DNA from: a virus
Taxonomy: Duplodnaviria > Caudoviricetes
DNA: 64,000 nt
IMG/VR virus record: IMGVR_UViG_3300023174_000037
Strand: one strand, 5' to 3'
Shown: positions 34,010 through 44,191 of the stretch, one piece after another
Numbering within the stretch: the stretch's first letter is position 1
How the letters are laid out: the number at the start of each line of letters is the position of its first letter
Made by a program: the position numbers and the translations under genes
Notes under the pieces: generated by a model
Databases searched by the model: none
Seen by the model: the letters and a program-made list of their open reading frames with translations, nothing else
What the model was told of the DNA's origin: nothing

Positions 34010-34231
34010 TTATTTTACTTTGGACATATACTGAAGCATGTCAATTTTGCCTTGTTGCATTTCTAGCAAGGCATCAACAGGAGTAACATACGCACCAGTT
34101 TCTCGTGCCCGACGTTTGAGTTCACGTAGTCGTTGCGACACAGCAACGATCATGTCATACCGAGAACCAGCAAGGCTCACACATTTTTCAAGATCAACCT
34201 GGCTACTACGACTGTCAACGATTGGTTTCAT
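34010..34231 (-). CDS. rpoZ: RNA polymerase omega-subunit-like protein
   Basis: SRYDMIVAVSQRLREL resembles NRFDLVLVAARRARQ; TPVDALLEMQQGKI resembles TVIALREIEEGLI; RBS CAGGAG. Confidence 0.7.
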   Translation of the reverse strand: MKPIVDSRSSQVDLEKCVSLAGSRYDMIVAVSQRLRELKRRARETGAYVTPVDALLEMQQGKIDMLQYMSKVK

Positions 34232-34254
34232 ATCTTCTCCTGTTGTAAATGTAT

Positions 34255-34283
34255 ATTATACACGAAAACAATCTACTAGTCAA
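34255..34283 (-). promoter_or_regulatory. sigma70-type promoter for the omega-like gene
   Basis: TTGACT-17-TATAAT. Confidence 0.8.
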
Positions 34284-34981
34284 GCAATGATTTTTAATTC
34301 GTTAAACAATGGAACTATTTGTCGTTCAAAATACAATCGATGTCCATCATTGTTGATATGGCTATCAGCGCATTCGTATTGTTGATTAAATTTTAAATCC
34401 TTAATGCCCGAATAATCAAAATCCTGCACATTCTTAATTTGAGAAGCATGTAATACATCTTCTAATAGATCGAATGTGATATTATCTTCTGGTTCAAATT
34501 CTGGTAAACTCCAAAGAAACCGGGCACCTTGAATTGATGCTTGTCCATATGCCGCTAATATATTTGAAGTTGAAATATTTTTGTCTATGGCAATGTTTGA
34601 AAGATATTGGAGCTGGTATTTCTGTGCAGTTTGATAGTCGTCTGGCCCAGGTATTTCCCAACCAGGTACCCATGAGATTATTTTATCAGAATAGTAAGGA
34701 TGTGCAATTTGTTTTCTTTCTATATAGCTTCCTGCAAACACAATTAAATCAAACGTGTTTTCGGCGCAGGCATTTAATATATTAACAAGTATAGAAGTAT
34801 TATCAAGCCCAGGCAATGATTTATTCATCACAGTTAACGTAGGATATTGTTGTTGTAATAATGATGCCCAGCAAAATTCACTAGGACCATCTGTATCTTC
34901 CCATTTTGGTGGAGGACCGTCACCACGGTCACTGCATCCTTGCCCAAACGCAAAACTATCACCGGCAATTAAAATTTTCAT
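34280..34981 (-). CDS. SGNH/GDSL-hydrolase-like protein
   Basis: ILIAGDSFAFG, N-terminal G, DSHINNDGH. Confidence 0.65.
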   Translation of the reverse strand: MKILIAGDSFAFGQGCSDRGDGPPPKWEDTDGPSEFCWASLLQQQYPTLTVMNKSLPGLDNTSILVNILNACAENTFDLIVFAGSYIERKQIAHPYYSDKIISWVPGWEIPGPDDYQTAQKYQLQYLSNIAIDKNISTSNILAAYGQASIQGARFLWSLPEFEPEDNITFDLLEDVLHASQIKNVQDFDYSGIKDLKFNQQYECADSHINNDGHRLYFERQIVPLFNELKIIA

Positions 34982-35001
34982 ACAGTATTTAATACAACAT
35001 A

Positions 35002-35078
35002 TGGTGCCCCGAGAAAGATTCGAACCTTCAACAGCTCCCTTTTGAGGAGAGTGCGTCTACCAATTGCGCCACCGGGGC
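35002..35078 (-). tRNA. tRNA-Leu(CAA), short variable loop
   Basis: Loop CUCAAAA, 5-nt V-loop, A73, CCA. Confidence 0.9.
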
Positions 35079-35092
35079 GTGTAAAGTGCTTA

Positions 35093-35803
35093 TTATACAA
35101 CAACAGAAGTATTCCATTGTTGTGAGATAGCAGGTATTAATATGTTGTCGGCCCAGCTTACATAACTTTCTTTTGCAGGATGCCACTTATCCTCGGCTAG
35201 TGCAAAATTATTAGAGTTAACATATCCAAGAAGATTTTGAGTGTAAGGAACAAATGCTATTTGTTTGTTTGCAAAAAATTCTTGCATTTGATCAACTATA
35301 AGTTGATCTATATCATCAATACCAAAAAATACCAGCATGTGATCAGCCAATTGATTTACTAACCATATAGTGCATAGCAATTGGCTAATATCATTGTTTA
35401 TGTTGGAATAAAAAAAGTCTTGATTTTTTAACACATAAGTGTCATGTAAAATATCTACATGACGTTGGCCATCAATATAATTCTTAGTTGGTGATTGTTG
35501 AGAGTAAGTAAATCCGTTATCATGTTTTGGCATATATTTTTTACCAACAACATCTGGATGGTCTGGCGGCAAACGCATATTGCCGGTCCTAGTTGGAAAA
35601 GTTATTTGCCAAACTATATCAAAGGGTTCGTAAGGTGACAACACAAAATCATTTATTCTATTGATTTGTGTGCGATTAGTTCCGCCGCCAATGGCTAAAT
35701 TTATCAATTTGTTGTAGGCAAAATAGTCTTTGACATAATCGGCCCAGCCCGGTTGTTGAGTGAAACTACACCCACAAGTGACTAGCGTTTTAGGTGAATT
35801 CAT
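35093..35803 (-). CDS. SGNH-hydrolase-like protein
   Basis: LVTCGCSFT, NLAIGGGTN, DKWHP. Confidence 0.6.
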   Translation of the reverse strand: MNSPKTLVTCGCSFTQQPGWADYVKDYFAYNKLINLAIGGGTNRTQINRINDFVLSPYEPFDIVWQITFPTRTGNMRLPPDHPDVVGKKYMPKHDNGFTYSQQSPTKNYIDGQRHVDILHDTYVLKNQDFFYSNINNDISQLLCTIWLVNQLADHMLVFFGIDDIDQLIVDQMQEFFANKQIAFVPYTQNLLGYVNSNNFALAEDKWHPAKESYVSWADNILIPAISQQWNTSVVV

Positions 35804-35810
35804 TGTGCAA

Positions 35811-35818
35811 TATTTATA
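35811..35818 (-). promoter_or_regulatory. T4-type late-promoter-like TATAAATA box
   Basis: Exact TATAAATA 7 nt before an ATG. Confidence 0.5.
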
Positions 35819-35830
35819 GATTTAAATCAA

Positions 35831-35906
35831 TGGGGTAACCAATGGGAATCGAACCCATATTAACGGAATCACAATCCGTGGTGTTGACCGTTACACTATG
35901 ATCACC
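35831..35906 (-). tRNA. tRNA-His(GUG)
   Basis: Loop UUGUGAU, encoded G-1:C73, CCA. Confidence 0.93.
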
Positions 35907-35912
35907 ATTGTT

Positions 35913-35987
35913 TGGTCCGCCCTGCAGGAATCGAACCCACATTCTAGAGGTAGAAGCTCTATGTTCTATCCATTGAACTAAGGGCAG
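35913..35987 (-). tRNA. tRNA-Arg(UCU)
   Basis: Loop CUUCUAC, CCA. Confidence 0.92.
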
Positions 35988-42855: not shown

Positions 42856-42974
42856 TTGTTTTATTTCCTTTTAAAAGTAATGCTTAGAATAATATTTAGT
42901 GGGTTTCACGAGTGGCCTGTAATTTTTGCACACTTTCCTACCACTTTTATAGTTAACGGCATAGTTAACTGGCT

Positions 42975-43000
42975 AAAAAAGAGCCCACCGAAGCGGGCTC
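42975..43000 (-). terminator. Intrinsic terminator after the tmRNA
   Basis: GAGCCCGC-UUCG-GUGGGCUC-UUUUUU. Confidence 0.88.
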
Positions 43001-43345
43001 TTGTTATTTTCTGTTACGAGGTATAACTACCCTATCGCGGTGATTAAACTGCGAAAGATGTGGCTTTCACTGTACGAGCAGAGAACTTGACGTTCTTACC
43101 TGAAACAGTTACTTCGCCTGTAGATGTTTTTGCATTTACATTATTTGCTTGATTTACAGTCATCGCCTACTGTGTTGCCGTCTCTATTATCTCACCCTGT
43201 CGAAACCATGGCAGGCCCATTATGAAGTATACTCACGTTTCTTATGTCTCTGTTGGCTATGTGCCAACCGAATATACTTTATGGTGGACCTGGCGGGAGT
43301 CGAACCCGCGTCCAGAATGCCTTCACTTTGAAGGGATTACAACAA
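43001..43345 (-). ncRNA. ssrA: Circularly permuted (two-piece) tmRNA
   Basis: Acceptor piece ...GCGGGUUCGACUCCCGCCAGGUCCACCA (3' end 43282) precedes the coding piece starting GGGCCUG (43218); G3.U70; tag ORF 43133-43044. Confidence 0.92.
43225..43279 (-). ncRNA. 55-nt structured RNA, copy 2 (tmRNA intervening sequence)
   Basis: 10-bp closing stem, GUUGGC/GCCAAC hairpin, AGAGACAUAAGAAACGU. Confidence 0.8.
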
Positions 43346-43349
43346 TTCT

Positions 43350-43589
43350 TTAATACACTGCAACAGGTATTGCGGGACTAAATCCTGCTAGTAGCGACTG
43401 ATAACCGTTTGCGCTTTCGGTGCTACTCCACATTCTAACATTTGTTGTAGTATCAGCAGTGTTGCTCCATATGTATACCTGTCCGTTGGTTGTTCCTGCA
43501 GTTGTTTGTGCGCTGATATAGCTAGCTAACTGGGAAGTTTCAGCCTCAGTGAGCACTCGAGGTACAGTTATTTCTGTAAAATATGCCAT
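43350..43589 (-). CDS. Hypothetical protein
   Basis: RBS AAGGAG; lies between csp and ssrA. Confidence 0.75.
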   Translation of the reverse strand: MAYFTEITVPRVLTEAETSQLASYISAQTTAGTTNGQVYIWSNTADTTTNVRMWSSTESANGYQSLLAGFSPAIPVAVY

Positions 43590-43644
43590 TTAAAAACTCC
43601 TTTTTTAGTATGTGCTATCAAATACAAATAGCACTATTAACTAC

Positions 43645-43848
43645 TTATGCCGGCACAATATTTGATGCCTGCTTGCCTTTTGGGCCCTGAACCAAGTCAA
43701 ATTTTACCACTTGGTTTTCTTTTAATGTTTTAAATCCATTAATATTAATTGCTGAAAAATGTGCAAATACATCCTCGCCGCCGTCATCTGGTGTAATGAA
43801 TCCAAAACCTTTTGCATCATTAAACCATTTTACTTTACCTACTACCAT
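43645..43848 (-). CDS. Cold-shock domain protein (CspA family)
   Basis: [15 protein letters not shown] (RNP1), DVFAHFSAI (RNP2), KGKQASNI. Confidence 0.97.
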
Positions 43849-43882
43849 ATATTACTACTTCCTTTTAAATTAAACATGAGTG

Positions 43883-44062
43883 CTAATTATAGCCTTTTAC
43901 AACATTTTTGTCAACCTTGGGATTACCTTTTGCATGGGCATCTTGATGTGATTGCCTCATGCGATCACGTTCGGTTGGCAACTTTCCACAACCCAACCGA
44001 TCCCATTCTTTTTCAGAATAGTAATACTGGTCAACGGGTTTTTTCTGCTGCTTCACGATCAT
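43883..44062 (-). CDS. Hypothetical protein, 59 aa
   Basis: Hand-translated; YYYSEKEWDRLGCG. Confidence 0.55.
   Translation of the reverse strand: MIVKQQKKPVDQYYYSEKEWDRLGCGKLPTERDRMRQSHQDAHAKGNPKVDKNVVKGYN
43886..43914 (-). promoter_or_regulatory. Consensus sigma70 promoter of the csp-orf79-ssrA unit
   Basis: TTGACA-17-TATAAT. Confidence 0.85.
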
Positions 44063-44077
44063 ACTATTTAGCTTGTT

Positions 44078-44154
44078 TGGTGGGCCAGGTGGGATTCTAA
44101 CCCACGATCAATGCTTTATGAGAACACTGCTTTAGGACACTAAGCTACTGGCCC
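44078..44154 (-). tRNA. tRNA(CAU), probably Ile2 (lysidine type); degenerate D- and T-loops
   Basis: GGGCCAG acceptor, loop CUCAUAA, T-loop UUAGAAU, CCA. Confidence 0.75.
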
Positions 44155-44162
44155 GGATACGT

Positions 44163-44191
44163 AGTATAGCACTAAGGCTCGTAGTTGTCAA
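44163..44191 (-). promoter_or_regulatory. sigma70-type promoter directly before tRNA(CAU)
   Basis: TTGACA-17-TATACT. Confidence 0.75.

Follow-up and report, generated by a model that had tools for sequence, protein, structure and literature searches.

The 64,000-nucleotide (nt) stretch of viral DNA analysed here (the window; IMG/VR record IMGVR_UViG_3300023174_000037, Duplodnaviria, Caudoviricetes) carries an island of about 10 kb in which transfer RNA (tRNA) genes, a transfer-messenger RNA (tmRNA), genes for small proteins, and conserved hairpin spacers alternate along the minus strand. We think it probable that this is a known kind of feature, the translation-support island of a huge phage, and that it is a mosaic rather than one co-inherited machine. 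Within it lie two conserved, translation-coupled cis-elements that are apparently undescribed: a leader open reading frame (ORF) with an attenuator, and a micro-ORF that runs into tRNA-Lys(UUU). Seven promoters in the island match the sigma70 consensus at 11 or more of 12 positions, all of them on the coding strand, where resampled sequence gives an expectation of 0.43 for both strands together.

We mapped the proteins and RNAs of the window on 13 distinct relatives that hold the whole interval from gene o123 to the gene for an RNA polymerase omega homologue. The syntenic core comprises o123, tRNA-Met, usually the small ORF o59, the tmRNA, a phosphoesterase (12/13), a few tRNAs and omega, after which the small ORF o53, tRNA-Ser(ACU) and tRNA-Thr(UGU) usually come. 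Other parts are patchy: a cold-shock protein (Csp) gene is present in 5/13, a porin gene in 4/13 and an RNase-H-like gene in 1/13, and neither the Cys-phosphatase gene, nor the leader ORF, nor tRNA-Lys with its micro-ORF occurs in any of the 13. These relatives have small islands of 4.2–9.2 kb with 2–14 tRNAs, compared with 31 tRNAs in the window. The closest relative, L094 (omega 97% and exonuclease 96% identical; 15 tRNAs), is without the leader, the small ORF o54, the o40 RNA, the Cys-phosphatase and tRNA-Lys. Because the accessory parts are so patchy, the island is best described as a mosaic of cassettes on a conserved backbone. A preliminary description of the locus had read all of these parts as one integrated system and had named independent distribution of the components as the finding that would speak against it; independent distribution is what the accessory parts show, the core being the exception.

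The tRNA genes and their first promoter are arranged as follows, tRNA-Lys being listed further below.

44163..44191, minus strand: sigma70-type promoter TTGACA-17-TATACT, TG extended, directly 5' of tRNA-Met
44078..44154, minus strand: tRNA-Met(CAU), the island's first tRNA, found after o123 in nearly all relatives
39032..39746, minus strand: initiator-type tRNA-Met, a membrane ORF, then tRNAs Ala, Tyr, Glu, Trp and Ser(UGA)-like
39119-39032, minus strand: the tRNA-Ser(UGA)-like gene itself, with a Ser-type long variable arm, G73, CCA and a UGA anticodon
36494..38476, minus strand: main tRNA block, Leu (two), Gly, Asn, Cys, Asp, Met, Pro, Val, Ile, Ser, Gly, Thr, Ile-UAU and Arg
35002..36234, minus strand: tRNAs Phe, Thr, Gln, Arg and His, an ORF with a GDS motif (35803-35093), and tRNA-Leu(CAA)
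33324-33235, minus strand: tRNA-Ser(ACU)
33022-32947, minus strand: tRNA-Thr(UGU)

Thirty tRNA genes are called by both ARAGORN and Rfam between 44154 and 32947, every one on the minus strand. The tRNA-Ser(UGA)-like gene brings the total to 31; all 20 amino acids are covered and CCA is encoded in every gene, in agreement with the complete set reported in the preliminary description. ARAGORN misses the Ser(UGA)-like gene because of a C.A mismatch closing its anticodon stem, and Rfam gives it a weak tRNA-Sec match only (34.7 bits), but it is 85–92% identical in the relatives L089, L084, L027 and L092. The main block has promoters at 38529 and 38293 and conserved non-coding gaps.

The anticodons of this set follow the phage's own codon preferences. 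The window has 41.5% GC (36% at third codon positions), and its AT-rich codons take large shares: AGU 42% of Ser, AUA 25% of Ile, UUA 30% of Leu and AGA 23% of Arg. Phage anticodons read the preferred AGU, AUA, UUA, AGA, AAA, GAA and CAA, and simple wobble rules bring at least 85% of the codons in 33 ORFs of the window within reach of the phage tRNAs. Anticodons with an unusual A34 turn up repeatedly in the family (Ser ACU, joined in relatives by Leu AAG and Phe AAA); they decode U-ending codons by Watson-Crick pairing. The anticodon loops are canonical across the family, including Lys CUUUUAA in 8/8 genes and Trp in 29/29, and the only odd loops in the window are those of Asp (U37) and Phe (G37). 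A set matched to the phage's AT-rich codons suggests compensation rather than escape, and we consider that the likelier purpose. The escape-type variants of the preliminary description are therefore not borne out by loops such as that of Lys, and of its proposed supply of replacement tRNAs the supply stands, whereas nothing in the loops points to escape.

Several further observations concern individual tRNAs and spacers. The tRNA-Asp gene (37679-37753, minus strand) has the loop UUGUCUA, with a pyrimidine at position 37, where most relatives have the canonical CUGUCAC. The tRNA-Ile(UAU) gene (36577-36668, minus strand) is 92 nt long, and about 20 nt of it form a mostly unpaired variable region, which is unusual for a class I tRNA. 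The tRNA-Ser(ACU) gene is found in at least 12 distinct relatives and adjoins the pair formed by omega and the small ORF o53 at most loci; AGU is the commonest Ser codon. Three gaps in the tRNA block (37003-37233, 37417-37599 and 38004-38304, minus strand) are conserved as DNA in relatives, at 79%, 99% and 78–83% identity. The first holds a T-arm-like hairpin at 37144-37159, and none of the three matches an Rfam family.

The leader lies upstream of the main arrays and has three parts.

41963..41991, minus strand: leader promoter, 12/12 to the sigma70 consensus
41751..41906, minus strand: 51-codon leader ORF with all 20 amino acids; segment 2 at 41781-41769
41688..41731, minus strand: segment 3 (41731-41719) overlapping a terminator hairpin (41724-41698), followed by a U-tract

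The alignment of five lineages shows two alternative structures. Helices 2:3 and 3:4 are each fully paired in 5/5 lineages with compensatory changes in both; they share columns 210-216, and column 216 covaries with its partner in each. The stop codon falls 9–17 nt after segment 2, and therefore a terminating ribosome would cover segment 2, which is the logic of the trp attenuator. All five lineages preserve the reading frame and begin and end it in the same alignment columns, at an ORF length of 46–51 codons. Substitutions are equal on codon positions 1, 2 and 3, so the sequence of the leader peptide is not conserved: the positions of Cys, Tyr and His shift among the peptides, and there is no run of codons for one amino acid. 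Each of the five peptides nevertheless includes every one of the 20 amino acids, which a random peptide of that length achieves in 3–6% of cases; none of the seven other small ORFs of the island does so. A profile search (nhmmer) found the leader, whole or partial, at 18 loci, some of them near-identical and some with terminator-only remnants. It accompanies arrays of 16–31 tRNAs and is absent from the 13 small islands, L094 included; wherever the downstream DNA is known, the next tRNA begins 125–481 nt past the leader, the window being the exception. BLASTN for the leader in five large relatives returned nothing. Neither the leader, nor the o40 RNA, nor the 55-nt hairpin, nor a 220-nt gap matches an Rfam family at a relaxed threshold.

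These features support the attenuator leader of the preliminary description, and its claim that ribosome stalling is sensed is plausible as a single link, since a trp-like, translation-sensing leader stands ahead of tRNA arrays. The leader probably ties tRNA supply to translation. A rival account takes the whole island as passive codon compensation without any sensing, in which the leader would be a small gene followed by a terminator, the micro-ORF overlap would result from compaction and the hairpins would be spacers. The match of anticodons to preferred A/U-ending codons agrees with this account, as does the absence of a good Shine-Dalgarno (SD) sequence from the leader, and the minimum-free-energy fold of the window leader lets the 2:3 stem and the U-tract hairpin coexist. 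A small gene with a terminator does not account for covariation of column 216 in both helices, for the retention of the frame and of all 20 amino acids while the peptide drifts, or for a leader that tracks large arrays even among close relatives.

The second cis-element joins a short reading frame to a tRNA gene.

36377..36472, minus strand: SD-led 32-codon basic micro-ORF with no stop before tRNA-Lys
36301..36375, minus strand: tRNA-Lys(UUU) with the canonical loop CUUUUAA

A conserved AU-rich leader carrying AAGGAG lies upstream of tRNA-Lys(UUU). It leads to an ATG, from which the reading frame meets no stop codon before the tRNA begins; this is the non-stop micro-ORF (36472-36377) that the preliminary description had noticed. 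Such a run-in ORF is present at 7 of 8 distinct tRNA-Lys(UUU) genes and at 29 of 409 other tRNAs (7%), an enrichment of about 12-fold. Two unrelated Lys-rich peptides occupy the site behind the same 5' untranslated region (UTR), one basic, of 32–41 residues, and the other acidic, of 9–10 residues. Purifying selection acts on the basic peptide, whose codons show 13 synonymous and 13 non-synonymous changes. It is likely, on this pattern, that translation is functionally coupled to tRNA-Lys(UUU) through the micro-ORF. The enrichment at one tRNA, and the recurrence of two unrelated peptides at one site behind one 5' UTR, are not what compaction predicts. Even with the common occurrence of tRNAs and tmRNAs in huge phages (PMC7162821) in its favour, we judge the passive account of the island unlikely, although it deserves serious consideration. 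We also considered whether the micro-ORF peptide is ArfA and rejected that identity: it has no Pfam match at E<=5, and an Atlas search gave unnamed clusters only.

A structured RNA element occurs twice in the island.

36241..36295, minus strand: 55-nt hairpin copy 1, flanked by the tRNA-Lys CCA and the tRNA-Phe 5' end
43279-43225, minus strand: 55-nt hairpin copy 2, in the intervening segment of the tmRNA

The family to which they belong has at least 14 distinct copies, in whose alignment 99% of cells are paired and seven pairs show compensatory change; register-shifted controls are only 26–53% paired. Its members fold into an outer stem of 10 base pairs (bp) and an inner one of 6 bp, and one strand of 17 nt is invariant. 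Each copy stops 6–11 nt short of a tRNA or of the tmRNA coding piece, which puts its end immediately ahead of an RNase P site. We infer that the hairpin RNAs would be excised there, and of the shared excised RNAs in the preliminary description it is the sharing, with two copies in the window and 14 covarying copies in the family, that is directly seen. A weak third copy lies at 41401-41340, in the o40 region.

The tmRNA extends from 43344 to about 42975 on the minus strand and is identified by two covariance models, RF04321 (123 bits; cut-off 47) and RF01850 (119 bits; cut-off 84), which bears out the permuted tmRNA of the preliminary description. Its gene is split in two and permuted: the acceptor piece lies upstream of the coding piece.

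43282..43344, minus strand: acceptor piece, with the T-arm, the 3' strand of the acceptor stem and CCA
43219..43281, minus strand: intervening segment of 63 nt, with hairpin copy 2 (43279-43225)
42975..43218, minus strand: coding piece, with 5' GGGCCUG, the tag frame 43133-43044 and a terminator at 43002-42979

The acceptor stem is reconstituted when GGGCCUG pairs with CAGGUCC, which is followed by ACCA, and it includes a G3.U70 pair. The resume context is of the beta type, UAAAU-GCA, with resume codon GCA and a 29-codon tag. By Rfam, the tmRNA is present in 13/13 complete islands and in two further large contigs; ARAGORN alone misses it in 5/13 islands, in all five of which Rfam places it above threshold at the expected position.

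The usual tmRNA tag has 10 residues (PMC11915505). Two classes of tag occur at the same locus in this family: canonical tags of 10–13 residues ending in LAA, such as ANDEQFALAA and ANASNDEVFALAA in relatives, and long tags of 27–31 residues. The long tags (n=14) differ by in-frame indels, share a common stop codon and always end in [F/L]AV. Since the frame is kept through indels, the tag is evidently translated and under selection. The long tag appears to be a variant of tmRNA tags, and a long-tag tmRNA is not described in the literature that we searched. The recycling of stalled ribosomes that the preliminary description proposed is plausible in view of a tmRNA in all 13 islands and of these in-frame indels. 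Both tag classes share the prefix ANAS..EV, as if an insertion had produced the long tag. No match to SmpB (PF01668) was found in five relatives, two of them at least 95% complete.

Metatranscriptome data gave two observations that we do not use as evidence. One contig (run X20) joins 43220 to 43279 and skips the intervening hairpin of the tmRNA; this most likely reflects a relative with a different spacer, not RNA joining. Other contigs cover many parts of the island, among them the leader ORF, which is matched at 41744-41906 without a mismatch. These are assembled contigs from mixed communities, with possible DNA carry-over or reads from relatives, and they give neither ends, nor strand, nor levels.

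The downstream end of the island is marked by a small protein gene and its companion.

34010..34231, minus strand: RpoZ (omega) homologue of 73 residues, with its own promoter at 34283-34255
33820-33981, minus strand: o53, a basic ORF of 53 residues directly after omega in most relatives, 56–96% identical

The omega-like protein of the preliminary description matches PF01192 (omega/Rpb6) at 27.5 bits (gathering cut-off 26), and many relatives are pre-annotated with this family. A profile of the phage proteins aligns with E. coli RpoZ at E=1.3e-4, query positions 13-66 to residues 5-61. In a Foldseek search of the Protein Data Bank with an AlphaFold model (mean predicted local distance difference test score, pLDDT, 85), omega chains made up 29 of the 30 best matches, with template-modelling (TM) scores of 0.5–0.6 and probabilities up to 0.93, all at E>0.1. 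The homologues are all from metagenomes, and our literature search returned no paper on a phage-encoded omega. The N-terminus of the phage protein is longer, carries an invariant Ser-Arg and cannot be aligned with the E. coli residues 2-5 that contact guanosine tetraphosphate (ppGpp) as part of its site 1. The shielding of stable-RNA transcription from ppGpp, which the preliminary description had assigned to it, is pure inference. Omega adjoins o53 at 31 loci, at most of which tRNA-Ser(ACU) and tRNA-Thr(UGU) come next; this module occupies 32947..33981 in the window, just beyond the interval 34010-44191 of the preliminary description, and o53 is a candidate partner of phage omega.

Some jumbo phages encode their own multisubunit RNA polymerases. 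Omega could then be a subunit of such an enzyme and not a modifier of the host polymerase. Two near-complete and three partial relatives have no Rpb1 or Rpb2 (beta' or beta) match, where 14/14 control genomes matched, and the promoters that drive the island are of the host sigma70 type. We regard a phage polymerase as highly improbable here. With no beta, beta' or SmpB in five large relatives, the phage appears to rely on the polymerase and the SmpB of its host.

The remaining protein genes and the o40 region complete the island.

43883..44062, minus strand: o59, a small conserved ORF in 10/13 islands
43645..43848, minus strand: cold-shock protein of the CspA/CspE family (PF00313, E=5e-29), with its own 12/12 promoter at 43914-43886
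43350..43589, minus strand: o79, an ORF whose stop abuts the tmRNA
42130..42855, minus strand: TorF/Gcw_chp-family outer-membrane porin with a signal peptide, between tmRNA and leader; nearest relatives in Burkholderiales
41511..41675, minus strand: o54, a small conserved ORF, found after the attenuator in relatives
41330..41501, minus strand: the o40 region, a promoter-like site and structured leader RNA before the first tRNA in relatives
40390..40908, minus strand: Cys-based (HCxxGxxRS) phosphatase-like protein, rare among relatives
39813..40397, minus strand: calcineurin-like metallophosphoesterase (phrog_547) in 12/13 islands; nearest aq_1665 and PdeM
39460..39657, minus strand: single-pass membrane ORF of 65 residues, between initiator tRNA-Met and tRNA-Ala
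38526..38999, minus strand: RNase H-like protein (PF04308, phrog_11311)

The cold-shock protein is as the preliminary description had it, but its RNA-end enzymes reduce to a generic calcineurin-like phosphoesterase and a Cys-phosphatase for which a search of solved structures gave no match. Neither phosphatase has an RNA-specific signature. An RNA repair module of the T4 Pnk/Rnl type is also missing, with neither ligase nor kinase in the island, and the sole RNA-ligase-family match (PF09414) lies in one relative, about 150 kb from its island. The region listed as ORF o40 is more likely a promoter-like site (TTGACA-18-TACACT in relatives) and an RNA with covarying hairpins; in relatives the element stands about 180 nt before the first tRNA of an array. 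The 65-residue membrane ORF keeps its place after initiator tRNA-Met in several relatives, at 70–89% identity. Three ORFs share an N-terminal GDS(L)-like motif (34280-34981, 35093-35803 and 46746-47450, minus strand), two of them within the tRNA block, and have no Pfam, PHROG or NCBIfam match.

These inventories bear directly on the synthesis offered by the preliminary description, in which a sensor leader, resistant tRNAs, tmRNA, omega and phosphatases form one feedback system against tRNA-cleaving abortive infection. Escape from retrons and from other defences aimed at tRNAs is known for phage tRNAs (PMC11555353, PMC10264068), and tRNA-Lys(UUU), the classic target of PrrC (PMC10264068), is the tRNA that carries the run-in ORF. 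The layout of the leader would also suit the sensing of stalled ribosomes, and the family as a whole conserves tmRNA and omega. The synthesis requires more than this, and it is at odds with the independent distribution of the accessory parts, with canonical anticodon loops (that of Lys included), with an island that has neither RNA ligase nor kinase and with phosphatases of generic type. The omega N-terminus cannot be aligned to the residues through which ppGpp would act, and AT-rich codon use fully explains the anticodon set. As one system, it is quite unlikely. The observation itself was largely right, and its parts are more than chance, but the synthesis is over-built; the finding that the parts are not inherited together as one system keeps an attractive model from being carried forward. 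The island may still have a role against tRNA-cleaving defences.

Relatives and sampling sites place the island in its genomic context. It probably represents the variable tRNA/tmRNA island of an uncultured freshwater jumbo phage with a genome of about 340 kb. Relatives in IMG/VR reach 331 and 344 kb, with 23–29 tRNAs and a tmRNA; the 344-kb genome has direct terminal repeats and is rated 100% complete. A genome above 200 kb, a large tRNA set and a tmRNA, the marks of a huge-phage translation island, are thus all found. The flanking 5'-3' exonuclease gene has hundreds of relatives in IMG/VR, where the omega gene occurs at 31 loci. No cultured relative emerged from INPHARED, in which a nucleotide search gave short tRNA matches only and tblastn of an 871-residue ORF gave nothing. 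The phage DNA is confined to freshwater and lake runs, from several studies. The porin has homologues at 35–45% identity, all in Betaproteobacteria and mostly in Burkholderiales. The host is probably a betaproteobacterium, because the relatives of the porin are betaproteobacterial and the tmRNA is of the beta type.

Several points weigh against the interpretation that we favour, a mosaic translation-support island with two translation-coupled cis-elements. The SD sequence of the leader is weak in the window and weak or absent in relatives, and we did not identify a 1:2 pause hairpin. A complete relative of 344 kb with 29 tRNAs gave no leader match, in a search by BLASTN only. In the window, five genes and another promoter separate the leader from the first tRNA, and transcription from the promoter-like site of the o40 region could reach the tRNA array without passing the attenuator. 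RNA processing, hairpin excision and trans-translation are all deduced from sequence. Codon compensation and escape were judged on phage sequences alone. Finally, core synteny among related phages reflects descent and is no proof of functional coupling.

With these reservations, a working sequence of events can be proposed. Host RNA polymerase would transcribe the island into polycistronic precursors; host RNase P and 3' trimming would then free the individual tRNAs, both pieces of the tmRNA and the hairpin RNAs. Once a ribosome arrives at the stop codon of the leader, it would mask segment 2, and the terminator could form; if it stalls before that point, segments 2 and 3 would stay paired and transcription would read through into the tRNA array. 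Cleavage by RNase P at tRNA-Lys would turn the micro-ORF into a non-stop message. The phage tRNAs would top up the decoding of phage codons, and the tmRNA, with host SmpB, would free ribosomes from broken messages and add a phage-specific tag of 27–31 residues. Csp and the omega homologue may act on RNA and on the host polymerase.

It is tempting to speculate that the island forms a real feedback loop on the supply of tRNAs, in which the all-20 leader senses stalling in general and admits transcription to the large array, the micro-ORF couples the maturation of tRNA-Lys(UUU), the tRNA that anticodon nucleases favour as target, to its own availability and the long-tag tmRNA handles the non-stop peptide. 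We find this doubtful. If true, it would be the first leader-peptide attenuator known for tRNA genes and a phage-specific use of trans-translation.

The purpose of phage tRNAs has been debated for fifty years between codon compensation and counter-defence, a debate in which van den Berg et al. (2023) describe 'escape' phage tRNAs (PMC10264068). The cis-elements described here offer a way into it. What the leader conserves is no more than a frame that stays open, the full amino-acid alphabet and a terminator that can be switched; it is a cis-element open to direct test, as is the reading frame joined to tRNA-Lys. Should read-through, or the yield of tRNA-Lys, respond to tRNA depletion, the expression of phage tRNAs would be demand-driven. 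Moreover, phage omega and the long tmRNA tag are handles on the retuning of host transcription and on ribosome rescue.

Comparison with known systems places each element near a described counterpart. Al-Shayeb et al. (2020) found tRNAs and tmRNAs to be common in huge phages (PMC7162821) and read them as sustaining or redirecting translation; the window phage shares the genome above 200 kb, the many tRNAs and the tmRNA. It differs in that SmpB was not found in its relatives and in features on which that paper is silent: a leader attenuator, a run-in micro-ORF, clamp hairpins and an omega homologue. Two-piece tmRNAs were already described in aquatic phages by Buchholz et al. (2022; PMC9004378). 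With these, and with the betaproteobacterial RF01850, the tmRNA of the window shares a permuted order, an early sigma70 promoter and an aquatic phage as its bearer. Its tag is longer (27–31 residues instead of the usual 10) and ends in AV rather than AA, and its intervening segment is a hairpin that doubles as a tRNA spacer.

ArfA and BrfA are made from non-stop mRNA under the control of tmRNA, and ArfA is inactive at 40 residues (PMC8012679). The micro-ORF resembles them as a small basic peptide whose message would lose its stop by RNA processing. It is shorter (32–41 residues), has no sequence match to ArfA and is sometimes replaced by the acidic peptide of 9–10 residues, and the cut would be made by RNase P at the tRNA, where that of ArfA is made by RNase III. 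The phage omega and bacterial RpoZ align in their core helices and motifs, and the predicted fold may be that of omega, whose chains lead the structural matches at E-values that are weak for so small a protein; the phage protein differs in its longer, unalignable N-terminus, in having no C-terminal tail and in its pairing with o53.

The tRNA cluster of phage T4 includes two small stable RNAs, rnaC and rnaD. Like these, the hairpins of the window are small structured RNAs interleaved with phage tRNAs and presumably released by tRNA processing; they differ in their covarying 10-bp outer stem, in the invariant 17-nt strand and in their role as the intervening segment of a tmRNA. The trpL, hisL and pheST leaders are leader-peptide transcription attenuators. 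Like them, the leader of the window has a promoter ahead of a short, putatively translated ORF. Its two helices exclude each other because they draw on one common strand, an intrinsic terminator follows, and the position of the stop codon is such that a terminating ribosome would cover segment 2. Its SD sequence is weak and no 1:2 hairpin was identified, and where the classical leaders carry a run of regulatory codons ahead of biosynthetic enzymes, this one carries codons for all 20 amino acids and has tRNAs downstream.

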